Source of the DNA: a virus
Strand: one strand, 5' to 3'
IMG/VR virus record: IMGVR_UViG_3300031647_000028
DNA: 34,202 nt
Position 1 is the first letter of the stretch. Each line of letters begins with the position of its first letter. The translations under genes and the position numbers were made by a program. Shown here piece by piece: positions 174 to 34,202 of the stretch. A model generated the notes under the pieces. The model searched no databases. It was not told the origin of the DNA and saw only the letters and a list, made by a program, of their open reading frames with translations.

Positions 174-425
174 CTAGCCATGGTCTATCCTCATGTGTTT
201 CCAAATTTGGTCAATCTTTTTAGACTGAGCGTCTAGCATTTTCTCAATCTTTTCAGTCGTGTGAAGAAACTCATCACGATGTATAAAGTCTTTATGCAAA
301 CCTATCTGACAGCTAGTCATATTATGCTCTAAGTCTTTAATATCCTTCATTATTGATTTAACAACTCCGCCTGTTATAGCTGAGAGAACACTGACAAATG
401 CCAATATTATTTCTGATAGTTCCAT
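174..425 (-). CDS. Small membrane-anchored protein (N-terminal TM helix, charged C-terminal part); holin- or i-spanin-like
   Basis: 83-aa ORF. Hydrophobic segment IILAFVSVLSAITGGVV is followed by a K/D/E-rich region. AAGGA lies upstream of the ATG. It sits in a cluster of membrane proteins. Confidence 0.35.
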   Translation of the reverse strand: MELSEIILAFVSVLSAITGGVVKSIMKDIKDLEHNMTSCQIGLHKDFIHRDEFLHTTEKIEKMLDAQSKKIDQIWKHMRIDHG

Positions 426-448: not shown

Positions 449-1378
449 TTATAATAAATAAAGGCACTGTTGCCTATCCCAATCGTCATCAAAAACATGG
501 CTAATCATTTTTATAATAGGAAGCCTTACAGCTTCCTCTGAATTTGGAGAGCGCCCACTCAATTTGAAATTCCTTACCCCTAGACTGTAAAGATTATCAA
601 CATCCTTCTTAGTAGATATAATAAAACCTTTATCTTGTTTAGTTTTCAAAGCAAGACCTTGTATGACTTTTTCTCTAGGGCATAGATTATTATATAAATC
701 AACCTCCTTTCCAAAGTATAACTCTTGTTCTGTGTCTGTGGTCGCATTGTTACCCATAGCAACTAAGTCATAATGGTGTTTTCTTATACTGCAATTATAA
801 GTACATCTCTCATCTAGTAACACTTCAATTTTATTAATATTATTCAAAGACTCTATTAAGGCGTAATCTTTATTGTCGTCAGGGTGCAGAACAACTTTAT
901 CAAATCTATCTGTTAATGAGTTATAGTAAGATGCCGTTCTTTTATGTGGAAGGTCGTTAGTAACTTTAAGAATTGATGATTTTGTTTTTAGGTTGGGGTA
1001 CTTATCTTTTATATAGTCAAAAAGATAATCACTTGTAAGTATAACTCCATTACCCACATTAGGCTTGTTAGCGGTGTCTAGTAAAAAGTTACCAACATAG
1101 TCGCTTATATTAGTAGAGTCTATGTATGAATTTGTAAATGTAAAGAAAGTATTAATACCAAGAGAGTTAGTCTCGTCTATGTATTCTGTTACTCTTTTCT
1201 CATCATTTAAACGAAAAGCTCCTGTTGTTCTTCCACCATTCCAACGTGTTAGTAAAGAGCCATATATTGTTCCTATAGGTAGTTTTTTTCCATAAGTGTT
1301 CTCAATATAATTCAAGAATGGCAAGGGTAGAGAGTGGAATAAACTAGGTAAGGAGAAATGACAATCAGTAAAATTCAT
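449..1378 (-). CDS. 309-aa enzyme-like protein of unknown function; weak resemblance to the peptidase-U32 TIM-barrel pattern
   Basis: Long ORF. Segments GVILTSD, PNLKTKSSI, KVVLHPD and IEVLLDERCTYNC loosely recall U32-family blocks (recalled from memory, not searched). Its ATG overlaps the stop of the upstream 57-aa ORF (ATGA). Confidence 0.3.
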   Translation of the reverse strand: MNFTDCHFSLPSLFHSLPLPFLNYIENTYGKKLPIGTIYGSLLTRWNGGRTTGAFRLNDEKRVTEYIDETNSLGINTFFTFTNSYIDSTNISDYVGNFLLDTANKPNVGNGVILTSDYLFDYIKDKYPNLKTKSSILKVTNDLPHKRTASYYNSLTDRFDKVVLHPDDNKDYALIESLNNINKIEVLLDERCTYNCSIRKHHYDLVAMGNNATTDTEQELYFGKEVDLYNNLCPREKVIQGLALKTKQDKGFIISTKKDVDNLYSLGVRNFKLSGRSPNSEEAVRLPIIKMISHVFDDDWDRQQCLYLL

Positions 1379-1548
1379 AGTGTATTACTCATTCTTTCTT
1401 TCAGGTATTTGTACATAGTGAAATTTCCTATAACCTCGGTCTCTCTTTCATTTTTAAACCTAATCTCCCCCTTATCCCCCTTCCATTCTATAGACTTTAT
1501 ATTTGGATCTATACCTAGATTAAATATTGGGGGTTTTTCGTTTTTCAT
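1375..1548 (-). CDS. 57-aa hypothetical protein, translationally coupled on both sides
   Basis: Not in the supplied track (<60 aa). I translated it codon by codon: MKNEKPPIFNLGIDPNIKSIEWKGDKGEIRFKNERETEVIGNFTMYKYLKERMSNTL. ATG 1548-1546 overlaps the sulfotransferase TGA (1547-1545). Its TGA 1377-1375 overlaps the ATG of the 309-aa ORF. Confidence 0.5.
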   Translation of the reverse strand: MKNEKPPIFNLGIDPNIKSIEWKGDKGEIRFKNERETEVIGNFTMYKYLKERMSNTL

Positions 1549-2372
1549 AGGACCTCAGGGTAGAATTTTTCATAGAACGGTAAAAAATCACTGACAATGC
1601 TAGCGTTTAAATCGCTATATAAAATGTCGTCAAAGTCTTCAACTGTATCTGAATTAAACTCAAGAGTTGACACATTATGTAGGCATGGGGTTTTGTTTAC
1701 TATGTCTGCTAAATAATCTTCTTCAGGTTTATAGGGTTTAATTTTATCGAAGTCTATAGATATTTCTAAGAAATCATACATCTTCCTTATTTCAGACTGT
1801 GTGTCTGTCAATAAATCTTCAAACCTTATAATTAAGAAATCATTATTATTAAAAGAGCCGTCACTAAGCATGCTCATTATTCGATTCAGGTAAAAACCTA
1901 AAGCCCTGTTTTCTGTAGACAACAACCATAAAGCCCTTGACCTTTTACTTGATAAGTCTATATCTTTAGGATAAATTGCAGACTTTGTTGTAGCTGTCTT
2001 TTGATAATAACTCTCAAACGAGGCTAATATCCCCCTAATATCTCTAACCAACAATATTGCTTTAGCTTTCGGTCTTAATGCTTTTAACACTCTAAAATCT
2101 GTTGACCAGCCTCGGTCTTTGTCTATGATAATTTGATTTGTTTTTACTCCCGACCATGAATCTATAAAAGCATTTATAGCTGACTTAGTCCTGTCAATAT
2201 AGTTAAAAGAGTTTAGGCAGGGTGAGTCGTCTATAATATCTATCATCTTATCAACAATAAAATAGTTCTCACTATTGGAACACACGCACAAACGAGGGTC
2301 TTGAGATAGTATTTTAGAAAGTTTGGTTGACCCTGAGCGTGGCATCAAACCTAATGCGACATAATCAGTCAT
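1545..2372 (-). CDS. P-loop sulfotransferase-family protein
   Basis: N-terminal GLMPRSGSTKLSKIL matches the PAPS 5'-phosphosulfate-binding loop (xRSGST). LLVRDIRGILAS matches the RDPxDxxxS 3'-phosphate-binding motif of bacterial sulfotransferases. Confidence 0.65.
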   Translation of the reverse strand: MTDYVALGLMPRSGSTKLSKILSQDPRLCVCSNSENYFIVDKMIDIIDDSPCLNSFNYIDRTKSAINAFIDSWSGVKTNQIIIDKDRGWSTDFRVLKALRPKAKAILLVRDIRGILASFESYYQKTATTKSAIYPKDIDLSSKRSRALWLLSTENRALGFYLNRIMSMLSDGSFNNNDFLIIRFEDLLTDTQSEIRKMYDFLEISIDFDKIKPYKPEEDYLADIVNKTPCLHNVSTLEFNSDTVEDFDDILYSDLNASIVSDFLPFYEKFYPEVL

Positions 2373-2382
2373 AGTTAAATAA

Positions 2383-2772
2383 TTAGTTTTTTGGGTATTT
2401 ATCTTTTATCACTTTAATAGCATCACTCCAACCAACAATACCATTGTGATAAATATCATCCAGTTGCTCTATAATGCTAGGATATTCTACAGAGCGCTTA
2501 TCTGCATAAGTCATATTAGAAATTCTATCTACTTCTTTCTGTATTTCAAAAGCTACCAACCTTTGTTTTTCAGCAGCGTGAGCATCAACTAAAGATTGAT
2601 AAGCAGTAATTTCTGTAAATTCTTCATTTGGCGTATTGTCTTTAAACTGTACGTTACCTGTTGAGCCATTCCACTCAATAGCGTGAATATTTGCATCAAT
2701 AGTAAAGTCGAAGTTAATTGCTTCTCCATCAATTTGAATCATTCTGTCGTCTGTAATTACACATACATTCAT
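2383..2772 (-). CDS. Hypothetical protein, possible tail-fibre assembly/chaperone-like
   Basis: 129-aa ORF two genes downstream of the tail fibre. The C-terminal YADKRxxEYPSIxEQLDxIYHxGxxxW...IKxKYPK pattern resembles phage tail-assembly-chaperone-like domains (memory only). Confidence 0.3.
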   Translation of the reverse strand: MNVCVITDDRMIQIDGEAINFDFTIDANIHAIEWNGSTGNVQFKDNTPNEEFTEITAYQSLVDAHAAEKQRLVAFEIQKEVDRISNMTYADKRSVEYPSIIEQLDDIYHNGIVGWSDAIKVIKDKYPKN

Positions 2773-3071
2773 TAGTGCTCTCCTAATATTTTATTTTTTT
2801 TCTTAACTATCTTGTTAAATTCTTCTTGACCTTTTACAGTCTCATTTCTAAAACTCTCTAGTGCTTGAGTTTGACCTCTATTTGTATTAGACATCTCAAC
2901 TTGTAGCATAGGCATCCAACTCATAGAACACGCCCAATCATCCACTTCTTTACCTGTGTTTGGGTCTAGTCCTACCATCTTAGTGTACCAAGCACAACGC
3001 TTGATAACACCATCTACAGCTTCTTCACAAGTTGAACCTAAAGGGCAAAAGAACTCTACTTCTAATGCCAT
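2772..3071 (-). CDS. Hypothetical 99-aa Cys/Trp-containing protein
   Basis: The ORF is coupled by a 1-nt TAATG overlap to the tail-fibre gene and by a 1-nt overlap to the next gene. Confidence 0.55.
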   Translation of the reverse strand: MALEVEFFCPLGSTCEEAVDGVIKRCAWYTKMVGLDPNTGKEVDDWACSMSWMPMLQVEMSNTNRGQTQALESFRNETVKGQEEFNKIVKKKNKILGEH

Positions 3072-5428
3072 TAGTCTTTACTACAAACAATTACGTTTAT
3101 GTATTGAGGTGCAAATGCTGTAGGAGTTGATGAGCCTGAAGTGCCTGATACTGCTACAGTATGTGTATGAGCGCTCGCACTACTTGTAGCACCTGTGCCA
3201 CCTGCCCCTGTAGTTCCACTAGCAGAACCTGAAGTGCCTGAACCACCACTTGTGATACTACCTGCTAATGAGTGACTATGAGAGCTAGAGCCGCCCTTGC
3301 TGCTAGTAGAAGCATTAAATGAGTATTGAGCGCCAGAAGCCCTGTCAACATTACCAGGTGAACTACCCCAACCACTTTTTACTGAAAGACTATGATTATG
3401 ACTAGGCATCTGAGATACACTCAATGTATGCGAACCCGCACTTAAACTATGAGAATGAGAGTGACTAGGCGTACTATGAGTATGTGAAGCGCCTGAGTGA
3501 GTATGTGAAGCACCTGTGTGACTATGAGCGCCCGCACTAGAAGTAGTAGATGATGAATCACTAAAACTATGCGTGTGAGCTGTGCTAGGAGGTGAGCTAA
3601 ATGCGTGTGTACCACCTGTACCACCACCTGTACCACTAACTACTCTTAATCCTTTATCGTTATTAGTTGTGACCTGTGTCCAAGAGGTAGGTGCTGATGC
3701 TTGATAAAACACCATAACCGTTCCACTAGGAAAAGAGACAGGTGCTGAATAACCAAGGTCAGATAGTGTTAATGTACGAGTAGAGACTGTACCATTGGCA
3801 TCTGTAACGTGACCCGAAGTATCTGTTGTAACATTAATATCAATATCACTGATTACTGTAGCACCTGTTAAAGCACCTGAGTCCACACTAAAATCGTCTC
3901 CTGGATGTGAAGGATGAGCATAGTTATTAGCACTTGTGGCGATGCCGTCTAGTTTAGTATTATCAGCTGAAGTAAAGTTCTTTTGTGTAAGACCGTTGTC
4001 ACCTACTGAGTAAGTTGTATTGTTATCAGGGATAGTTACTGATTCGCTAGTACCATCGCCCTTATAAAGACTTACCGTATGACCTGATAATCTAAGAGCA
4101 TCTGTTGCGTGTAAAGAGCCTTTTTCGGTATCGTGTACAACGCTAGAAGGTAATGAATAATTGTTTGCACCTGTAGCTACGCCTGATAGTTTAGTTTGTT
4201 CAGCATCACTAAACTCGTTACTATTAGCATTAGCTTCATAAGCAGTCTTTATCTGAGCATTGGTTTGGTCTGCTGTAGCACCTGTTTCAATGCCATTTAA
4301 CTTAGCTGAGTTTAGCTCTGTATCTGTAACAGCGTTTGCTACAATTTGAGCATTAGAAGCAGTACCTGATAAATCACCACCCATAGTCGGGTCAGCTGAG
4401 ATACTTGTCCAAGTCATTGTACCATCAGCATCTGAGCCTAAGTATTGTCCTGCTGTACCATTACCTGTTACATTTAATTCTGAAGCGCCTACTGAGTTAG
4501 CATCAATCTGACCAGCAGCTACACTACCTAAAGTAGCTAGAGCCGCTAACCCTAAGTTTGTTCTAGCTGTACCTGCATTATTTAAGTCTGATAAGTTGTT
4601 AGTTTGTAATAAAGCACCTGAAAGAGAAGCATAAGCAGCAACCCAAGAAGAGCCTTCATACACAAACATAGCGTCACTGGTACTATTAAAGTATAAAGTA
4701 CCACCAGCTAAGGCATTACCATCATTATCTAATGTAGGGGCACTAGTTTTCTGACCTAAGTATCTATCATCAAATGAATCAAATGAAGCTAAAGCTGAAT
4801 CTCTTGCTGCTTCTGCCGCTGCTTGAGCAGTTGTGGCGCTAGAGGCTGAGCTACTTGCGTTAGTCTCTGAAGTTCCAGCGTTAGTTTCTGAAGTTCCTGC
4901 TGCTGTAGCTGATGTGCTTGCATTACCTGCTTGTGTTGTAGCAATACCAGCTTGAGTCGTAGCAGTAGAAGCCTTAGTCGTAGCAATACCAGCCTGTGCT
5001 GTTGCGGTTACTACATCTGCAGCGGTATCAATCGTGTCTTGGTTTGTAGCTACTAAGTCAGCGGCTGTTGCAACTGTATCTGCTGCTGTAAGAATTAAAT
5101 CTGCTGCTACTGCTGCTCTATCTGAGCCAGTTTGTACCTTATCAGCTTCTGCTAAAACTACATCAGCTGCTGTGGCAACTCTGTCTAATCCTGTTTGTAC
5201 TTTATCAGCCTCTGCAAGGACAACATCAGCATTGGTTAATACTAAATCTGCTGCTACGTTAGTCTCTGCTAATTCTGCTGCTGTTTTAGCTGTCTCAGCT
5301 GCTACCTTAACATCTAAGAATCGTTGGGTTGAGAACTTTTTAGAAGTACCACTATCATTGATTAGCACCTCTTCAGTACCTACCATTGTGGTTTTCTCGG
5401 TTAATGCTGAAATCTTAATTGATGCCAT
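3071..5428 (-). CDS. Tail fibre / receptor-binding protein
   Basis: 785 aa. Ala/Thr-rich coiled repeats are followed by DDRYLGQKTSAPTLDNDGNALAGGTLYFNS, which is typical of phage tail fibres. The C-terminus is Gly/Ser/His-rich with many HxH motifs and ends with a collar-like PQYINVIV. Confidence 0.75.
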   Translation of the reverse strand: MASIKISALTEKTTMVGTEEVLINDSGTSKKFSTQRFLDVKVAAETAKTAAELAETNVAADLVLTNADVVLAEADKVQTGLDRVATAADVVLAEADKVQTGSDRAAVAADLILTAADTVATAADLVATNQDTIDTAADVVTATAQAGIATTKASTATTQAGIATTQAGNASTSATAAGTSETNAGTSETNASSSASSATTAQAAAEAARDSALASFDSFDDRYLGQKTSAPTLDNDGNALAGGTLYFNSTSDAMFVYEGSSWVAAYASLSGALLQTNNLSDLNNAGTARTNLGLAALATLGSVAAGQIDANSVGASELNVTGNGTAGQYLGSDADGTMTWTSISADPTMGGDLSGTASNAQIVANAVTDTELNSAKLNGIETGATADQTNAQIKTAYEANANSNEFSDAEQTKLSGVATGANNYSLPSSVVHDTEKGSLHATDALRLSGHTVSLYKGDGTSESVTIPDNNTTYSVGDNGLTQKNFTSADNTKLDGIATSANNYAHPSHPGDDFSVDSGALTGATVISDIDINVTTDTSGHVTDANGTVSTRTLTLSDLGYSAPVSFPSGTVMVFYQASAPTSWTQVTTNNDKGLRVVSGTGGGTGGTHAFSSPPSTAHTHSFSDSSSTTSSAGAHSHTGASHTHSGASHTHSTPSHSHSHSLSAGSHTLSVSQMPSHNHSLSVKSGWGSSPGNVDRASGAQYSFNASTSSKGGSSSHSHSLAGSITSGGSGTSGSASGTTGAGGTGATSSASAHTHTVAVSGTSGSSTPTAFAPQYINVIVCSKD
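5105..5230 (-). repeat. Two tandem 63-nt (21-aa) repeats inside the tail-fibre gene
   Basis: aa 67-87 ADVVLAEADKVQTGLDRVATA and aa 88-108 ADVVLAEADKVQTGSDRAAVA. Confidence 0.85.
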
Positions 5429-16846: not shown

Positions 16847-17082
16847 TGGGATATTTTTCTAATTTGCATTTAGAGATGCAAGAAGATAATGCTCACACAC
16901 AAAGTGAAGAGCCAGATTTTATGGCCTATGCTCATGAAGTTATGGCGACTGAAGAGTTTGCCAGGGATATGGTTGATCATGATCGAGGTTATGATGAATA
17001 CAAAGAAAAGAGAGCTGGAGTCTTTCCCGAGATTGACTTAGGCTTTTTAGACATAAGAAAAGGAGATAAAAATGGAAGCTAA
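16846..17082 (+). CDS. Hypothetical acidic 78-aa protein
   Basis: Track ORF (TTG at 16831) trimmed to ATG 16846, which overlaps the upstream TAA (TAATG). Confidence 0.5.
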   Translation: MGYFSNLHLEMQEDNAHTQSEEPDFMAYAHEVMATEEFARDMVDHDRGYDEYKEKRAGVFPEIDLGFLDIRKGDKNGS

Positions 17083-17659
17083 AACACTAAACATTTATGA
17101 AAGATTAGCAATGGCTAGAAACATGATCACGGGCGTTAAAAAGAAAGCGAGCAATCCCTTTTTCAAGAGCAAGTATGCTGATCTAAACAGCGTTATGGAT
17201 GCCTTAGCACCTTCATTGATCGAGTGTAATCTGATCTATGTTCAGTATGCTAACCGTATTGATGGAGTTGATGTATTAACAACCGAGTTGGTTAACATTC
17301 CCAATCCAGAAGAGAAGATCATAAGCCACACGCACCTGGTTATACCTAGTGCTGATATGCAAAAGCTTGGAGGTGCAATTACCTATGCAAGGCGTTATGC
17401 TTTAGTCACTATGTTTGGCCTAGAAGCCATTGATGATGATGGCAATGTTGCATCTGGAAAGGCAAAGCCAGCAACGGCTACACAAGAACACAACGCACGG
17501 ATGCTTGCTGGAAAGAAAGCATTAGACAAGGCGAAGAAAGAAAATGATTATGACTCTGCTAGTGATATGTATGACTATGCAGAGAAAAACGGATTTATAC
17601 AGATCTGTGACTATTATCACCAGCTATTTGATTCTAATGAGTCAAGTGAAGGTATGTAA
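17072..17659 (+). CDS. erf: ERF-family single-strand annealing protein
   Basis: FKSKYADLNSV...LGGAITYARRYALVTMFGLE matches the conserved ERF core (G-x-x-x-TYxRRY). Confidence 0.75.
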   Translation: MEAKTLNIYERLAMARNMITGVKKKASNPFFKSKYADLNSVMDALAPSLIECNLIYVQYANRIDGVDVLTTELVNIPNPEEKIISHTHLVIPSADMQKLGGAITYARRYALVTMFGLEAIDDDGNVASGKAKPATATQEHNARMLAGKKALDKAKKENDYDSASDMYDYAEKNGFIQICDYYHQLFDSNESSEGM

Positions 17660-28742: not shown

Positions 28743-29143
28743 TATGTTGTACTAATAGTTAATGTTGTTCCTGACAACGAAGCCTTCACACCACCAAGTG
28801 CAGAAGATGTCGCAGCAGGTAAAGTGTAAGTAGTTATACCAGCAACTACAGCCGCAGCCGCAGTAGTTACAAATGCTGTTGTGGCTAATTTAGTTGTATT
28901 GTCTCCAGTAGTAGGAGTTGGTCCAGTTGCCTCGCCTACAATGGTCGCTGTTCCAGAAACCGTTAAGTTGTTAATAGCGAAGGCTTCACTAGATGATCCA
29001 TTTAGATTAGCTTTAGTATTAACTGCTGTTTGAACAGCTGAAAACTCAGTGTTAAAATCTGTTCCAGAGATTACCTTGGCTGCATCTGAATCAGATAAAG
29101 CGTCTTTACCACTCCAGTTTACTGCAATTGTATAGTTACTCAT
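28742..29143 (-). CDS. Small tail-fibre-like / tail-associated protein
   Basis: GDNTTKLATTAFV is a motif common in phage tail-fibre proteins. 133 aa. Confidence 0.45.
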   Translation of the reverse strand: MSNYTIAVNWSGKDALSDSDAAKVISGTDFNTEFSAVQTAVNTKANLNGSSSEAFAINNLTVSGTATIVGEATGPTPTTGDNTTKLATTAFVTTAAAAVVAGITTYTLPAATSSALGGVKASLSGTTLTISTT

Positions 29144-30726
29144 CGTATCTTCCCTTGTTTATATAATAATGTCATATCTTGTAATGAAGAGGTAGAGCCA
29201 TTGGTTTCACCACTCATCTCTAGTTGTAAATACTTAGCACTTCCTGTTAGAGGAATATTGTATTCTTTCATTCCAAAAATAGGTGCGAATTTAGATGTAC
29301 CAAATAAAGATGTTGTAGCTCCAAATAAAGAAGCTGTTCCCGAGCTTCCTGGATTTAGCAAGAAGTTTGTTGTATTAGATGGCTCGATACTAAAGTCTTT
29401 ATACCACTTAACACCAATAGTAGTTCCTGATCCACCTGAAATTACAGCTTTAATCTTCTTTAGGATAGAAGCCATAGCGCCTTGACCCAAGTCTATCCAA
29501 GTAGTTTTAAATGTTCCTGTGTAAGATGCAGACGTATAAGTTCCACCGCTCACATAATCCTTATCATAATACCCTTCATAAGTAGCTATTGATCCCGCTA
29601 TCTGACCTATTAAAAAGCCCTTAGAGTCTGTGTAAGCCATGCTAGATGGGTTTCTATCATCATCGAATGACCATGTTGTTATTCTTGGAGTGCCTGAAGG
29701 AGTTTCATGCTTAATATCAAAGACATAGGTTATGTTTAAATCAACAAAAGATAAAACATAAGTACCTTCGTTCTCAACATACAACGCTTTAGCATTTGAA
29801 CTTTGAGAGATGTTTCTAATAATTGTATCTTTGATTGTTAAAGATAAGTCTTGTAGTGGTACATTATCCTTCTCTGTTGTTCTGCTTAAAGACCTTACAC
29901 CTGTTGAAGATAGGAAGTATAAATCATCACCAACCGACTGTATTGAGTCTCTTGAAACACAACCAATACCTCTAATAACTTCGTCTAATACCATAGTAGA
30001 TGGTTCAGATGGTCCGCCATATATGACGATGTTACTCTTACCAAAGATAACTAGCTTTCCATAGAATGGAGCAATAGCTACAATATCATCTGTTCCCCAA
30101 ACGGTTTTCAAATCAACCGCACCAGCAGCACCTGAACTCCACTTATGAGCATTTAAAGTATCAGAGTAATAAACAACATCCTTCTCTTCAGTAATACCGC
30201 CTACCCATAGCCTTCCGTAGAATCCCATTCCACAGCTTGGATTAAAAGTGGTTACACCAGCGGGTGCGTTATATCCAGAAGTAGCAGGCAACGCCGCCCA
30301 AGTAGTGCCATCCAACTCTATAGGTATATGACCAGATTGAACGCAGTATAGCTCACGATTAAAGTCTATCATTTGCCAGTCAGAGGCAGAGCCTCCAGTA
30401 GCATAAGCAGCAGTCCAAGGGGAGTTAGGGGCAGTAAAGTCTACTGTGTACATATTAGTACCTACAGCGGCAACTACAACACCCGTACTTGTCTCACCTA
30501 TAGCACCAATCTTAGCAGTTGTCTTTAATATATTCTGCTTAACGCCTTTTCTAAATGAGATACGACCTGATTCTCTTAAAACAATATTATCCGCTTCAGT
30601 TAACCATGATTGATCGATAGCGGCAGGATTTGCCTGAACGTTTAAACCATTCAGTCCTAAATTATCTAATGGAGTATATTCTAATCTAGCTGACATACCA
30701 ATCACTTTCGTATTTAGTATTGCCAC
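29140..30726 (-). CDS. Tail tubular protein B / nozzle-like protein
   Basis: 528 aa, beta-rich, directly after the tube-A-like gene. The track start is a GTG at 30726, and an alternative ATG lies at 30696. Confidence 0.4.
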   Translation of the reverse strand: MAILNTKVIGMSARLEYTPLDNLGLNGLNVQANPAAIDQSWLTEADNIVLRESGRISFRKGVKQNILKTTAKIGAIGETSTGVVVAAVGTNMYTVDFTAPNSPWTAAYATGGSASDWQMIDFNRELYCVQSGHIPIELDGTTWAALPATSGYNAPAGVTTFNPSCGMGFYGRLWVGGITEEKDVVYYSDTLNAHKWSSGAAGAVDLKTVWGTDDIVAIAPFYGKLVIFGKSNIVIYGGPSEPSTMVLDEVIRGIGCVSRDSIQSVGDDLYFLSSTGVRSLSRTTEKDNVPLQDLSLTIKDTIIRNISQSSNAKALYVENEGTYVLSFVDLNITYVFDIKHETPSGTPRITTWSFDDDRNPSSMAYTDSKGFLIGQIAGSIATYEGYYDKDYVSGGTYTSASYTGTFKTTWIDLGQGAMASILKKIKAVISGGSGTTIGVKWYKDFSIEPSNTTNFLLNPGSSGTASLFGATTSLFGTSKFAPIFGMKEYNIPLTGSAKYLQLEMSGETNGSTSSLQDMTLLYKQGKIR

Positions 30727-31404: not shown

Positions 31405-31512
31405 TTACTTAGAAGATTTCTTTTTAGTTGTCTCTTTCTTTTTAGTTTCACCTTTAAGTTCTGCTTTTGCTTTTACTTTTTTATTTGTAACTTCTATGTT
31501 ATATCTTAACAT
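31405..31512 (-). CDS. Possible 35-aa lysine-rich protein
   Basis: Not in the track. MLRYNIEVTNKKVKAKAELKGETKKKETTKKKSSK. AGGAG lies 7 nt upstream. Confidence 0.35.
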   Translation of the reverse strand: MLRYNIEVTNKKVKAKAELKGETKKKETTKKKSSK

Positions 31513-31527
31513 CTTATTTCTCCTTTA

Positions 31528-31692
31528 TTATTGAGGTTGTGGACATTTACAGTCACACGTTTGTTGTGGATTTATCATTTGCATACTACCTTGCATTACC
31601 TGTTGAGGCATTGACATCATTTGATTAAAGAAAGCAAAAGCTGTTGCTGTTACAATCATACTTGCTAAAAAGATTATTGTAGATTTATTCAT
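31528..31692 (-). CDS. 54-aa exported/membrane protein with a Q/M/P-rich, Cys-containing tail
   Basis: Not in the track; translated codon by codon. MNKSTIIFLASMIVTATAFAFFNQMMSMPQQVMQGSMQMINPQQTCDCKCPQPQ. ATGA overlap with the upstream 114-aa gene. Confidence 0.45.
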   Translation of the reverse strand: MNKSTIIFLASMIVTATAFAFFNQMMSMPQQVMQGSMQMINPQQTCDCKCPQPQ

Positions 31693-32033
31693 AGTGATAA
31701 CGGGTTTCCTGTTGAGTTTACTTTAGTATCAACACGATCTTGGTCTTTTCTTAATGCTTTTATTTTTTCAGACAAGCTAATGATAGCTCCTGAGTTTACT
31801 CTTGTAATTGCTTCTAGCGCAGTATCGTCATATGTATATGTATAAACAGGTGTTTTTTCATGAGAAGAAACATTTAGTGCCTCTATATCAGCTAGTACCG
31901 TCTCGTACTTCTGAAGAGCTAACATCCCTGAGAATACTAAACCACCAATAGCAATAGCTATAGTTACAATCCAGCTTGCTGACATCTTCTTACCTTCTAA
32001 TGCTTCTTTAATAAAATTGATTATTGCTTCCAT
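31689..32033 (-). CDS. Membrane-anchored 114-aa protein (i-spanin-like architecture)
   Basis: TM segment ASWIVTIAIAIGGLVFSGMLAL followed by a soluble helical region. Confidence 0.4.
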   Translation of the reverse strand: MEAIINFIKEALEGKKMSASWIVTIAIAIGGLVFSGMLALQKYETVLADIEALNVSSHEKTPVYTYTYDDTALEAITRVNSGAIISLSEKIKALRKDQDRVDTKVNSTGNPLSL

Positions 32034-33222
32034 ACCATTCCCTGTTATCGTTAATTTTTACGCTATTGTAACCGTTTAAGATGCCACTATCGGTCATTCC
32101 TATCGAACTATAAAATGCTTGGTCTTGATACCAATCATCGTTATCTTCTAATTCTACTGACTCACTCAATGTGATACCTGTGTAACTGCTTATATCTACT
32201 GTGTCCACCAGTGCTACTTGTGTCATAACTGTGATGGACTTAATTAGGTTTAATGTTTGCAGCGCATCTGTTGTAGCTTCACCAACTTGTACGTCTTGCT
32301 TGGCTGTTGTAGTCTTAGCAATAACTACTATAGACTTCTTGATAGTCTTCTTAACTTGCTTCTTGACGGTCTTCTTAACCACCTTTTTTACTTGCTTCTT
32401 AACTGACTTTTTTGCTACTACTTTGGTGGCAGGTTTAACTACAGTCTTGGCTTGAACTTTTGGGGCTACTACAGCTACTGTTTTAACCTCAGCCTTAGTC
32501 TCTTCTTTTACTTCGACCACTACTTCAGCAACCTCAACCGTCTCTACTACTTTGACCACTTCCTCGACAACCTCTTCAGCTACCTCCTCAACTATTTCCA
32601 TCAAAGGTTCTAGCTGTATCTCTTCAACCTTCATTACTTCACCACCATTATCAATAATATCGTTAATGATTTCCTCAAGAATCTCATCAGCAACCTTATC
32701 GTGATAGTCTATAGATAGTGTAGGGTTCGTTAATCTAATATCATCAGTACCACCTCTATCAGATATACCACCGATAGTGAATGATATAAACTCAACATCA
32801 GGTAGTATTAGAGGGTTACTGTATATACCTGAGATAGTTACATAGTTATTACCTGCAGCACCAACGTCATAAGAGCCTACTTCTGAATCTAGTGAGTTAC
32901 TATTAGCATCATACAAAACCACACCTGCGTAGATAGTAGCATCAACAACAGACATATAATCCACAGACCAATTAATACCACTCATAAGTTGGTCTTCACC
33001 CACATAATCAGATACCTTGACCAACTCGTCTGTTTTATTAAGATGGTTAGGACTGCCTGTAAATATAACGGGGTCAGTAGGGCTATGGCTATGAATGTTC
33101 GGGTAGTCATAGATACCATCTAAGAATCCGTCAGTAGGATTAGGGTCTAGGACGTTGCCCGTGTTTAGTGCTTGGCTAGTTCCAATTAGAAGTAGAAGGT
33201 TTAAAGCTAGTAACTTTTTCAA
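32008..33222 (-). CDS. Exported 404-aa protein with an acidic EV-rich block and a basic VKKx-repeat block
   Basis: N-terminal signal-like MKKLLALNLLLLIGTSQA. aa ~178-247 is E/V-rich. aa ~251-307 is K/V-rich with (VKKx)n repeats. Confidence 0.5.
   Translation of the reverse strand: MKKLLALNLLLLIGTSQALNTGNVLDPNPTDGFLDGIYDYPNIHSHSPTDPVIFTGSPNHLNKTDELVKVSDYVGEDQLMSGINWSVDYMSVVDATIYAGVVLYDANSNSLDSEVGSYDVGAAGNNYVTISGIYSNPLILPDVEFISFTIGGISDRGGTDDIRLTNPTLSIDYHDKVADEILEEIINDIIDNGGEVMKVEEIQLEPLMEIVEEVAEEVVEEVVKVVETVEVAEVVVEVKEETKAEVKTVAVVAPKVQAKTVVKPATKVVAKKSVKKQVKKVVKKTVKKQVKKTIKKSIVVIAKTTTAKQDVQVGEATTDALQTLNLIKSITVMTQVALVDTVDISSYTGITLSESVELEDNDDWYQDQAFYSSIGMTDSGILNGYNSVKINDNREWYGSNNQFY
32302..32472 (-). 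repeat. 12-nt periodic repeat encoding VKKx units
   Basis: KKSVKKQVKKVVKKTVKKQVKKTIKKS. cttcttaac-type units are visible on the plus strand. Confidence 0.7.
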
Positions 33223-33766
33223 CTTTGACTCCCGTGTTTAGTGAACCGTCTTTGTTTAAGTAGCCTGCGTCAATAAGTATTTGCTTATTAGCTACATATT
33301 CTTGAAAGTCAGGTCTCAGCTCAGGGTAAGCGTTCCAATATCCTGCAGCTGCACTACCAATCTTACCTTTAGCAGGACAAGGTGTGCCTGACATAATCAT
33401 AGCTTGGAATACTCTAGGGTCTTGACATAATAAAGCAATAGAGGCTACCTTCATACCACCCTTACGCAATTCACGACTAAGTTTGAGTCTCTCACAGTTA
33501 GCATCAATCACAGTAGTACCAAATGATAATCCAATCACATTTGATTGAACACCACCACTAACACCACTAACACATACATCAGAATTACTTACTGAGATAC
33601 TTGGAGCTTTAGCACCACCTACAGGTTGGTTCTTATGGTCAACCGTAGAGGCGCTTGTGTTGTTTGAAGTAGAATTAACAGTTGAGTTTGATGTAGTAGT
33701 GGTTGTATAGGTGTTGTCAACAGCGTGAGCTGTAGTAACAAGCAATGCTAGTAATAGTGCTTTCAT
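33176..33766 (-). CDS. Exported 196-aa Cys-containing protein
   Basis: Sec-type signal MKALLLALLVTTAHA, a T/S/N-rich linker, and a Cys-containing domain of unknown function. Confidence 0.5.
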   Translation of the reverse strand: MKALLLALLVTTAHAVDNTYTTTTTSNSTVNSTSNNTSASTVDHKNQPVGGAKAPSISVSNSDVCVSGVSGGVQSNVIGLSFGTTVIDANCERLKLSRELRKGGMKVASIALLCQDPRVFQAMIMSGTPCPAKGKIGSAAAGYWNAYPELRPDFQEYVANKQILIDAGYLNKDGSLNTGVKVEKVTSFKPSTSNWN

Positions 33767-34197
33767 TATCTCCCCTTAGCAAGTGATGCACCGAAGTACA
33801 TTTCAACTATTAAGCTAGTCCATCCGAATATCTCATCATACTTAACCAAGCCTCTAACCATCGTATATTCAACAGTATCAGAAGTAATATCAAAACCTAG
33901 AAAGCTAATACCTTCAGTAACGATAGGAATAGCAGTAGGAAGGTCAAATATAATAGGAGCAAGGACATAAACAGTAATCAAGGCAAGCATCACCCAAATG
34001 ATTAATCGTCTGTTTAAGGCAGCCATAGGGCTTTCTTTATTAGCAGCGATACGAGCAGCATCTACAGCTTGTGATCTAGCAGCAAACGCATCTAGCATTT
34101 GTGACTGTTGTTCTGCTTTAGCTTGTTGATTAAGAGCAAACAACTTCATTAAGAAGCCACCTAAGATAGGTGCTATGCTTGTTAATAGACTAATCAC
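33766..34197 (-). CDS. Multi-pass membrane protein, possible holin (3-TM type)
   Basis: 143 aa with a GTG start. A hydrophobic N-terminus is followed by a Q/A-rich helix, then LIIWVMLALITVYVLAPIIF and a C-terminal hydrophobic segment. The architecture recalls GTA-type 3-TM holins (memory only). Confidence 0.35.
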   Translation of the reverse strand: MISLLTSIAPILGGFLMKLFALNQQAKAEQQSQMLDAFAARSQAVDAARIAANKESPMAALNRRLIIWVMLALITVYVLAPIIFDLPTAIPIVTEGISFLGFDITSDTVEYTMVRGLVKYDEIFGWTSLIVEMYFGASLAKGR

Positions 34198-34202
34198 AAG
34201 AC
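34141..34202. repeat. Second copy of the 62-nt window-end overlap
   Basis: Identical to nt 1-62. Confidence 0.9.

Follow-up and report, generated by a model that had tools for sequence, protein, structure and literature searches.

What are a sulfotransferase, a very short open reading frame (ORF) and a putative metalloenzyme doing one behind the other at the end of the tail-fibre region of a marine virus? The question is raised by positions 449 to 2372 of the IMG/VR virus record IMGVR_UViG_3300031647_000028 (34,202 nucleotides (nt); the whole of this stretch is called here the window), in which three genes of the minus strand, encoding products of 275, 57 and 309 amino acids (aa), follow the genes of the tail fibre and of a chaperone-like protein. 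An initial annotation, made from the sequence alone, had described them as an acquired, AT-rich cargo module and had proposed three possible roles, namely the sulfation of a host surface glycan, the modification of a virion component and the sulfation of the 57-aa product in the manner of the RaxST/RaxX pair. The account favoured here, to which we give a probability of roughly 0.55, is that the three genes form an accessory cassette whose enzymes are independent of each other and serve the late tailoring of a fibre-associated target.

Genomic setting of the three genes

The phage of the window is a marine podovirus whose portal and adaptor proteins are of SU10 type. Its capsid protein is ~33% identical to those of freshwater cyanopodoviruses (Pf-WMP3, A-4L) and ~25% to that of pelagiphage HTVC011P, and in a megablast search of the region against cultured phages, in which none was close at the DNA level, the only match was a chance-like one of 40 nt. 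The minus strand of the window is one continuous late operon. In this operon the 275-aa gene (1545..2372), the 57-aa ORF (1375..1548) and the 309-aa gene (449..1378) are located, as the initial annotation had it, behind the fibre and chaperone-like genes and ahead of the gene of a small membrane protein, orf83. Both of the junctions that it had described could be read directly in the sequence: in ctATGAaaa (1545-1548) the stop codon of the 275-aa gene overlaps the start of the 57-aa ORF, which has a GAGG a few bases upstream, and in ctATGAatt (1375-1378) the stop codon of the 57-aa ORF overlaps the start of the 309-aa gene. The 275-aa gene starts 10 nt past the stop of the preceding 129-aa gene and shows no obvious Shine-Dalgarno sequence. 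In a consensus scan, promoter- and terminator-like sites were in no excess over shuffled sequence, and the sole candidate is a weak, uncertain terminator-like hairpin with a T-run over the 3' end of the 309-aa gene (462..475, minus strand, hence read from 475 to 462). Coupled in translation, the sulfotransferase gene, the 57-aa ORF and the 309-aa gene belong to the late structural operon, and no signals of their own could be detected.

That these genes occupy an exchangeable position is shown by sister phages. The IMG/VR contigs L019 and L020 (L numbers denote the contigs and loci compared here) share the portal, the scaffold, the capsid and the 99-aa ORF of the fibre region (orf99) with the window at 77-87% aa identity, and between the gene of the tail-fibre-assembly (Tfa)-like protein and the homologue of orf83 they carry a second fibre (fibre-2, 388 aa) and a second Tfa-like protein (Tfa-2, 106 aa), which replace the three window genes. 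DNA identity to L019 amounts to 80-98% in orf99 and in the ~60 initial codons of the Tfa-like gene and falls to 50-60% at about position 2590, corresponding to codon ~61 of the window's 129-aa Tfa-like protein (Tfa129) and to the joint between its N- and C-terminal domains. The N-domain of Tfa129 is 74% identical to its L019 counterpart, the C-domain 46%, and the latter is nearer to that of L022 (64%). High identity in the N-domain, low identity in the C-domain and the drop at ~2590 therefore place the beginning of the exchanged unit at the chaperone C-domain. Among ~12 further lineages, a gene of Tfa C-domain type is usually followed by one more fibre gene. At the other end, strain L015 has three genes identical to those of the window, followed by an orf83 with 55 differences and an extra 43-aa ORF (L015:4028-4407 compared with 174-425 of the window), a pattern that indicates a second recombination joint directly downstream of the cassette; comparison of this downstream boundary with L019/L020 gave no DNA or tblastx similarity, and those contigs end soon after. 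Samples from many metagenomes contain the cassette in identical form. Judged by this synteny, positions 449-2372 appear to be a lineage-specific accessory cassette in a recombination-prone slot behind the tail fibre and its assembly chaperone.

The claim of an acquired cargo is thus retained on the basis of the exchangeable slot, as defined by synteny with L019/L020, and not on the compositional argument originally given for it. The module is indeed AT-rich, its GC content being 0.334 as against 0.381 for the contig, and only 5.9% of same-size windows are as low. The flanking core genes, however, are equally AT-rich (Tfa129 0.331, orf83 0.357), and the region at 14.5-16.5 kb has a lower GC content than the module. 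Since the module genes are no poorer in GC at third codon positions (GC3, 0.27-0.35) than the fibre (0.21) and capsid (0.29) genes, the contrast reflects the Ala/Gly/Thr/Ser-rich amino-acid composition of the structural proteins and not a foreign mutational signature, and a foreign origin argued from GC was discarded.

Slots after fibre genes are classic sites of accessory 'moron' genes, and the swapping of fibre cassettes downstream of tail-fibre genes is familiar in phages. The window cassette resembles these systems in being a replaceable insert between conserved late genes, in the place of which sister genomes carry other cargo. Unlike a typical moron, it has neither promoter nor terminator of its own and its GC3 is not deviant, and its cargo, a sulfotransferase and a U32-like enzyme, differs from that of known moron cassettes.

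The 275-aa sulfotransferase and its clade

The 275-aa product is predicted, from sequence and modelled structure, to be a genuine sulfotransferase dependent on 3'-phosphoadenosine 5'-phosphosulfate (PAPS), belonging to a branch of Sulfotransfer_3 type that resembles the tyrosylprotein sulfotransferases (TPSTs). It matches Sulfotransfer_3 (PF13469, 2e-16) and Sulfotransfer_1 (PF00685, 1.8e-13) of Pfam, both above the gathering cut-offs, and the function-unknown phrog_27463 (1e-25). Homologues numbering 47 were found at 24-36% identity, and a pattern scan of IMG/VR gave no closer relatives. Both of the PAPS-binding motifs on which the initial annotation had based its assignment are present and conserved. 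The 5'-phosphosulfate-binding (5'-PSB) loop is P11-R-S-G-S-T16, in which PRSGS is invariant in an alignment of 25 homologues, and the 3'-phosphate-binding (3'-PB) motif is R110-D111...S118, in which R110 and S118 are invariant and align with VRDGRASVHS of TPST1; D84-K85-x-R87-x-W89, F119 and H232 are invariant as well.

The identity of the enzyme is further sustained by structure-based searches. With the single 275-aa sequence no match was obtained in the PDB; the family profile retrieved TPST1 (1.3e-11), TPST2 (4e-9), the sulfotransferase (ST) domains of OLS and CurM (3e-8 and 3e-6, respectively) and then cytosolic SULTs. When an AlphaFold2 model (mean predicted local distance difference test score (pLDDT) 73) was searched with Foldseek, the top 13 PDB matches were TPST2 and TPST1 (E 2e-9, template-modelling (TM) score ~0.52), followed by the CurM ST, 3RNL, the OLS ST and heparan-sulfate 3-O-sulfotransferases (3-OSTs); there were 99 PDB matches at E<=1e-3, and the 50 listed are all sulfotransferases. 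TPST1 and TPST2 (PDB 5WRJ, 3AP1) are thus the best matches among solved structures both by profile (E 1e-11) and by fold. With them and with RaxST, which is also assigned to Sulfotransfer_3, the window protein has in common the P-loop sulfotransferase fold, a 5'-PSB loop that reads PRSGST in the window and PRSGTT in TPST, the Arg and Ser of the 3'-PB motif and a Lys equivalent to K158 of TPST2. Unlike them, it is encoded in a phage fibre module and not in the setting of a secretory pathway or of a raxX-raxSTAB cluster, and its identity to the TPSTs is only ~20%.

The clade to which this enzyme belongs is mostly phage-borne, and its genes repeatedly come right after those of large fibres or of chaperones. 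In L034, an unrelated phage contig of 52 kb that was retrieved solely via its Tfa C-domain, the order is fibre (435 aa, with an S74-type C-terminus), 81-aa Tfa C-domain protein, sulfotransferase (25% identical to that of the window) and small membrane protein. In L053/L054 and L055/L056, homologous proteins of 765 and 598 aa are followed by the sulfotransferase and then by a conserved 119-aa ORF, in surroundings that include Gly_rich_2, fn3 and GpJ-like tail proteins. In L057, three ORFs of 428-487 aa precede the sulfotransferase, and a Gly_rich_2 protein and a heptosyltransferase are encoded nearby. In L066 and L068, two phage contigs that carry genes of a clamp loader, a sheath or a neck, the sulfotransferase gene lies behind a common ~109-aa module, C-terminal in a 1,369-aa protein, and ahead of ORFs of 895/762 aa or 296 aa, with RmlA/RmlD-type genes a few kb away. 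In the bacterial locus L065 it stands among the genes of three large surface proteins with fn3, Ig-like and peptidoglycan-binding domains. The sulfotransferase of phage S-SKS1, surrounded by hypothetical proteins, is an exception to this linkage. When the large proteins beside the sulfotransferase homologues were compared for a shared domain, only subsets of them proved to be related to one another, and none to the window fibre.

These neighbourhoods hold further details. The 119-aa ORF directly behind the sulfotransferase recurs in three phage contexts (L053:7889-8248, L055:6274-6633 and L066:7807-8166) with 27-58% identity. The window lacks this ORF, which may be the genuine partner of the sulfotransferase clade. 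The 109-aa ORF of L066 (6640-6969) shares 69% identity with the last 109 residues of the 1,369-aa protein of L068 (2866-6975), inside which weaker repeats of its N-terminal ~29 residues occur. Downstream in L034 (3736-7002) are ORFs of 648 and 434 aa which, by eye only, resemble a PrkA-type kinase and a DUF444/YeaH-type protein.

The 57-aa ORF

Directly ahead of the cassette is the gene of Tfa129 (2383..2772, minus strand), a two-domain tail-fibre-assembly-like protein that matches phrog_9114 (4e-13), phrog_1787 and, weakly, phrog_4912 'tail fiber assembly'. It consists of two modules, an N-domain that co-varies with the fibre type and a C-domain that is widespread in viral contigs. The 57-aa ORF is related to the first of these: in BLASTP searches it matches residues 21-66 of Tfa129 (E 7e-10, 35% identity) and the 133-aa Tfa-like protein (Tfa133) of the sister phage L019 (E 1e-10, 41% identity). 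In the alignment it covers residues ~17-70 of the N-domain and keeps the invariant N..W..G..G core, which in the two-domain chaperones (the 129-aa protein; phrog_9114/1787/4912) reads N-I-x-A/S-I-E/Q-W-x-G-x-x-G-x-I/V-x-F; a hidden Markov model (HMM) of the N-domain recognises it with E 7e-25, the ORF itself being included in that model. Unlike those chaperones, it has neither the first ~15 residues nor any of the C-domain (EQLD...W...IKxKYPK), and consequently it is not a complete chaperone. The ORF ends at the domain joint, that is, at the position in its own N-domain copy at which the DNA identity of Tfa129 to L019 breaks off, and this end is what repeated recombination at the joint would leave.

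Among 5.8 billion proteins no other homologue of the 57-aa ORF was found, only exact copies on 23 contigs. It had been considered unannotated, which is not the case, as public gene callers call it on 23 of these 23 contigs. By chance, an open frame would be expected here with a probability of 0.5-1%, and on this strand the two alternative frames carry 8 and 6 stop codons; the frame of the ORF has remained open at ~60% divergence from its paralogue, and the single-nucleotide polymorphism found in it across the population is the only one and is synonymous. The ORF thus seems to be a maintained, or not yet decayed, stand-alone chaperone N-domain, and its predicted product is either a remnant that has been kept for binding the fibre or a relic that is neutral and still open, rather than the precursor of a sulfated peptide. 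It has no double-glycine motif or leader, and its tyrosines, Y46 and Y48, lie in the segment T-M-Y-K-Y-L-K, in a basic, Lys-flanked context and not in an acidic one.

The 309-aa U32-like protein

The resemblance of the 309-aa protein to TIM-barrel (triosephosphate-isomerase-type) enzymes of the U32 family, which had been called weak, is real and stronger than was claimed. A word-indexed search found 13 relatives only; with a profile, 1,972 sequences were retrieved from 1.84 billion representatives at E<=1e-3, and 455 at E<=1e-30. The family is thus a sizeable one, comprising ~2,000 clusters of proteins of 260-350 aa with no described function. In an alignment of 86 members, C196, H202 and K272 are invariant, and W46, G49 and R50 (of the motif WNGGR), F81, N83, S135, E185, C192, C233, G275 and R276 are conserved in at least 90%; the subfamily of the window adds HPDDN (165-169) and Y203. 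The predicted metal site, possibly for an iron-sulfur (Fe-S) cluster, would be formed by C192-X3-C196, by H202 six residues further on and by C233, all of them after the equivalent barrel strand.

The AlphaFold2 model (pLDDT 84, predicted TM score (pTM) 0.85) is a barrel of (beta/alpha)8 type. Its top PDB match in Foldseek is the U32 protein Mk0906 (5D88; E 1.2e-5, TM 0.60 normalised to the target), the others being generic TIM barrels, and in BFVD the best match is annotated as 'Peptidase' and comes from Escherichia phage OLB35 (E 5e-12, TM 0.71 with the same normalisation). Individually, 15 of the 86 family members match PF01136 (best 9e-8). In a profile-profile comparison with hhalign, the family aligned with a four-sequence E. 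coli profile (UbiU, UbiV, RlhA, TrhP) at 88% probability (E 3e-6, 121 columns, window residues 59-189). Sequence searches of the PDB with either U32-like profile gave no match, and the family is therefore tied to U32 via the fold search and hhalign.

All U32 proteins characterised so far are hydroxylases that need prephenate but no O2 and carry Fe-S clusters (PMC6747719, PMC10990095, PMC6599085, PMC5727448); in these proteins the ligands of the [4Fe-4S] cluster follow the pattern CX6CX15CX3/4C or the variants of UbiU/UbiV (PMC6747719). The 309-aa family resembles these hydroxylases (UbiU/UbiV, RlhA, TrhP) and Mk0906 in the TIM barrel, in the profile match of the central strands and in a Cys-rich segment past the equivalent strand. 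Unlike the hydroxylases, it shows the motif C-X3-C-X5-H...X30-C, with three Cys and one His, instead of CX6CX15CX3/4C; its CX3C can be laid on C193/C197 of UbiV, at E 0.31 and without statistical support. It also has invariant motifs of its own, WNGGR, HPDDN and FKxxGR, and it occurs in phage clusters of sugar and radical S-adenosylmethionine (radical-SAM) genes, in contrast to the quinone or RNA modification served by the U32 hydroxylases. We therefore place the 309-aa protein, on sequence and model, as a probable divergent branch of the U32 superfamily with a variant three-Cys-plus-His site, predicted to bind metal, and assign no reaction to it.

The closest viral relatives (40% identity), detected in a scan of viral contigs with a tighter sub-alignment of the family, are found in the T4-like L062/L063, where they adjoin an NAD-dependent sugar epimerase/dehydratase and a carbamoyltransferase. 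More distant relatives are encoded in clusters of 4-7 radical-SAM genes together with a family 2 glycosyltransferase (GT2), a split transketolase, an epimerase, a PIG-L deacetylase and a UDP-glucose dehydrogenase; the cluster of L004 adjoins an S74 fibre protein, and that of L001 includes an ATPase resembling those of ATP-binding cassette (ABC) systems. In cyanophage P-RSM1, a U32-like domain is part of a 524-aa protein located between annotated tail-fibre genes.

Some of these loci are of interest in their own right. In L004 (1-16891; a gp23-bearing, T4-like contig of JGI 3300060453), eight radical-SAM genes, one of them cut by the end of the locus, occur with GT2, split transketolase, NAD-epimerase, PIG-L deacetylase, UDP-glucose dehydrogenase-like and U32-like genes beside the S74-type fibre, and together they look like a large sugar- or aminoglycoside-like biosynthetic island in a phage, as yet unexplained. 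The locus L001 (826-10034; also L002 and L003) has an organisation like that of peptides made on the ribosome and modified after translation (RiPPs), with a 49-aa ORF, the U32-like protein P0003, three radical-SAM genes, the ABC-like ATPase (1,050 aa) and a fourth radical-SAM gene, and here the U32-like protein may act on a peptide. In a metagenome-assembled genome (MAG) of the Akkermansiaceae bacterium UBA7331, just past the ATP synthase operon, tandem U32-like paralogues of 324 and 341 aa (L064:6899-8903) recall the arrangement of the UbiU-UbiV heterodimer.

Distribution of the three genes

When HMMs of the sulfotransferase clade, of the U32-like family and of the N-domain were searched in all ORFs of 68 loci, the sulfotransferase and the U32-like gene were found together only in the near-clonal population of the window (L009-L018); in the seven other U32-like contexts there is no sulfotransferase, and in the ten other sulfotransferase contexts no U32-like gene. 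As a unit of three genes belonging together, in the way the initial annotation had treated it, the module is therefore confined to its own population and, judged by the co-occurrence elsewhere that the same annotation had demanded, it is not a conserved unit. The same is true of the 57-aa ORF, so that no peptide gene is co-conserved with the sulfotransferase, and relatives of this ORF were not found among the small ORFs beside other members of the two enzyme families. Small ORFs do overlap the starts of U32-like genes (64/74 aa in L062/L063, 49 aa in L001) or follow a sulfotransferase (59 aa in L057); as they show no relationship to the 57-aa ORF nor, for the most part, among themselves, a common small-ORF partner of either enzyme was rejected.

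Proposed role and alternatives

The most likely function of the cassette would be to modify, late and in the cytoplasm, a substrate that is associated with the fibre or lies on the cell surface, and the evidence tilts towards the former. According to the account that we favour, the cassette would have been assembled by recombination at domain boundaries within chaperone genes, and the sulfotransferase and the U32-like enzyme would be independent acquisitions rather than parts of one pathway. The sulfotransferase would act late in infection and in the cytoplasm, drawing on the PAPS of the host and O-sulfating an acceptor linked to the fibre. The likeliest acceptor would be the fibre itself, a different surface protein of the virion, or a glycan attached to such a protein, modified during or before assembly, and sulfation would change the charge of the particle and its adsorption properties. 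The U32-like enzyme would carry out a separate, metal-dependent tailoring step, possibly of hydroxylase type, on a carbohydrate-type substrate. A fibre- or virion-associated acceptor, protein or attached glycan, is proposed because the clade recurs behind fibre and chaperone genes, appears among bacterial surface proteins, has a TPST-like fold and is expressed late; taken by itself, this choice of acceptor is tentative and held at clearly less than even odds. Phage-encoded glycosylation of virions offers a precedent for tailoring enzymes in structural operons. In a more elaborate version, which we consider unlikely, the TPST-like clade would sulfate the fibre or its glycan before assembly and the 57-aa N-domain would be an adaptor docking one or both enzymes on the nascent fibre.

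Several observations weigh against this account and are best considered together. As regards the enzyme, the catalytic Glu of the TPSTs, which in TPST2 we take to be Glu99 in CGEETR, aligns to variable A/T/S/N positions in the clade (S-N-S in the window), in a loop whose alignment is of modest confidence, and because of this lack of conservation the 275-aa protein is not filed as a TPST. As regards the acceptor, no Tyr in an acidic context was found in the window fibre, nor in four of five further large neighbours that were checked, so that the acidic-tyrosine acceptor typical of TPST and RaxST is not evident in the neighbouring proteins; together with the missing Glu, this means that classical tyrosine sulfation of the fibre is not indicated. 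As regards the linkage, the sulfotransferase of Synechococcus phage S-SCSM1 is flanked by an exonuclease and an HNH endonuclease, that of the bacterial MAG L067 lies near pilin genes, and most of the large neighbours are 'fibre-like' only by size, position and weak domains, PHROGs recognising few of them; moreover, the nucleotide-sugar and lipopolysaccharide (LPS) genes near the sulfotransferase in L057, L066 and L068 fit a host-glycan target equally well. As regards the other two genes, the 309-aa protein itself gives no direct Pfam match to PF01136 and has neither the canonical four-Cys motif of U32 nor an upstream CX6C, and the population that carries the 57-aa ORF is too clonal for a ratio of non-synonymous to synonymous substitution, its ten loci being 99.9-100% identical.

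Among the alternatives, remodelling of the host surface survives best, though we regard it as doubtful. The sulfotransferase, perhaps together with the U32-like enzyme, would modify an envelope polysaccharide or LPS precursor in the host cytoplasm and thereby mask the receptor, leading to superinfection exclusion or to fewer progeny being lost on cell debris. The company kept by both families elsewhere fits this well, as U32-like relatives are found among epimerase/dehydratase, carbamoyltransferase, GT2, PIG-L and UDP-glucose dehydrogenase genes and the sulfotransferase homologues of L057, L066 and L068 have RmlA/RmlD-type or heptosyltransferase genes within a few kb, and the slot behind a fibre gene is a classic one for morons. 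The window itself is less favourable: in the ~26 ORFs scanned with Pfam and PHROGs, which included all those of at least 350 aa and part of the small ones, there was no glycosyltransferase, flippase or other envelope gene, and no exporter or PAPS-synthesis gene either. Furthermore, co-expression with the structural genes would leave little time before lysis to alter the envelope, the closest solved relatives are protein sulfotransferases, the carbohydrate enzymes (3-OST, NDST) ranking lower, and the recurrence, in unrelated phages, of a position right behind fibre and chaperone genes points to a connection with the fibre.

That the two enzymes act in sequence on a shared substrate is improbable. 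The U32-like protein would hydroxylate it without O2, as UbiU/V, RlhA and TrhP do, and the sulfotransferase would esterify the new hydroxyl; the translational chaining of the genes and the conserved Cys/His cluster after the equivalent barrel strand agree with such a pathway, as does the fact that all characterised U32 members are hydroxylases of this kind. In the 68 loci, however, the two families never meet outside the population of the window, the site departs from the four-Cys pattern, and no prephenate- or substrate-related gene is present. Neutral hitch-hiking is given slightly less credit still. The slot is highly mosaic and the trio is unique to one clonal population, as would be expected if the genes were recombinational debris in a permissive site, with the 57-aa ORF a dead relic and the enzymes without a role in the phage; against this, both enzymes have kept all of their catalytic and cofactor motifs, the frame of 57 codons has stayed open in spite of the divergence and chance expectation given above, and copies of the cassette from many metagenomes do not differ, not even beside an exchanged orf83.

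The RaxST/RaxX analogy is very improbable: a co-translated precursor of about the right size, kept open and coupled to a TPST-like sulfotransferase that would act on Tyr46 or Tyr48, is what suggested it, but RaxX is a ~60-aa precursor with a double-glycine leader and a sulfated Tyr in an acidic (Asp/Glu) context (PMC6637879), in a system with adjacent genes for a peptidase-containing ABC exporter and type I secretion, whereas the 57-aa ORF is a paralogue of the chaperone N-domain (E 7e-10 and 1e-10) with neither such a leader nor such a Tyr, no exporter of this kind was seen among the scanned ORFs, the small ORFs neighbouring other clade members are unrelated and the catalytic Glu of TPST is absent, so that the analogy was rejected.

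Relation to previous knowledge

Both enzyme superfamilies are already known, as are accessory cassettes behind fibre genes. In the literature searched, no report was found of this combination of cargo, nor of a function for such a phage sulfotransferase or for phage U32 proteins. What is new is this particular cargo, the U32-like family of ~2,000 clusters with its three-Cys-plus-His site in phage sugar and radical-SAM contexts, and the recurrent linkage of the TPST-like clade to fibres. Should the sulfotransferase act on the fibre or the virion, sulfation would join the short list of modifications of the phage particle (glycosylation, methylation), and it would offer a handle on how marine phages tune adsorption amid abundant sulfate and sulfated polysaccharides. 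If the orphan N-domain served as an adaptor in fibre sulfation, receptor-binding proteins of phages would be subject to a kind of post-translational modification not described before. Whatever its function, the U32-like family is a concrete target for enzymology. The chaperone domain joint would be a recombination point for cargo swaps in the fibre slot, of which the 57-aa ORF would be the footprint. The RiPP-type (RaxX-like) reading, attractive but unsupported, is removed.

Other features of the window

The upstream anchor of the slot is the tail fibre itself (785 aa, 3071..5428, minus strand), which matches the tail-fibre PHROGs 38058, 22284 and 24456 and the C-terminal part of which is common to the fibres of L019, L021 and L023. 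Near its N-terminus there is a duplicated AADVVLAEADKVQTG segment, and at its C-terminus a long Ser/His-rich stretch with repeats of HxH type (HTHSFS..., SHTHSGASHTHSTPSHSHSHS); this pattern resembles metal-binding fibre tips such as that of T4 gp37. Across the population the fibre is called with either 771 or 785 aa, a difference due to the choice of start site by the gene callers, the sequence being identical. Between the fibre and Tfa129 lies orf99 (2772..3071, minus strand), a core gene that is 82-87% identical in the relatives. The downstream anchor, orf83 (174..425, minus strand), encodes an 83-aa membrane protein that matches a 77-aa ORF of L019 (BLASTP E 1e-9) and, weakly, phrog_462.

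In the population loci L009-L012, which carry identical copies of the sulfotransferase, orf83 is followed by ORFs of 143, 196, 404 and 114 aa. These are the genes of the far end of the window, for which reason the contig is taken to be circularly permuted; from its two ends (1-600 and 31500-34202), the window is probably a complete genome of ~34.2 kb. The late operon crosses the ends of the window into the SU10-type adaptor and further virion proteins. No defence-system model of PADLOC matched.

Elsewhere in the structural operon, a 528-aa protein (29140-30726) matches phrog_5107 'amidase' of the lysis category (1e-55) as well as PHROGs of virion-structural and internal virion proteins, and is possibly a virion-associated lytic protein. 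The window also encodes a single-strand annealing protein of the ERF family (17072-17659; Pfam 1.8e-25), and in the population locus L009 a single-strand DNA-binding protein gene is called near the structural operon; a recombination machinery of this kind fits the highly mosaic fibre region.

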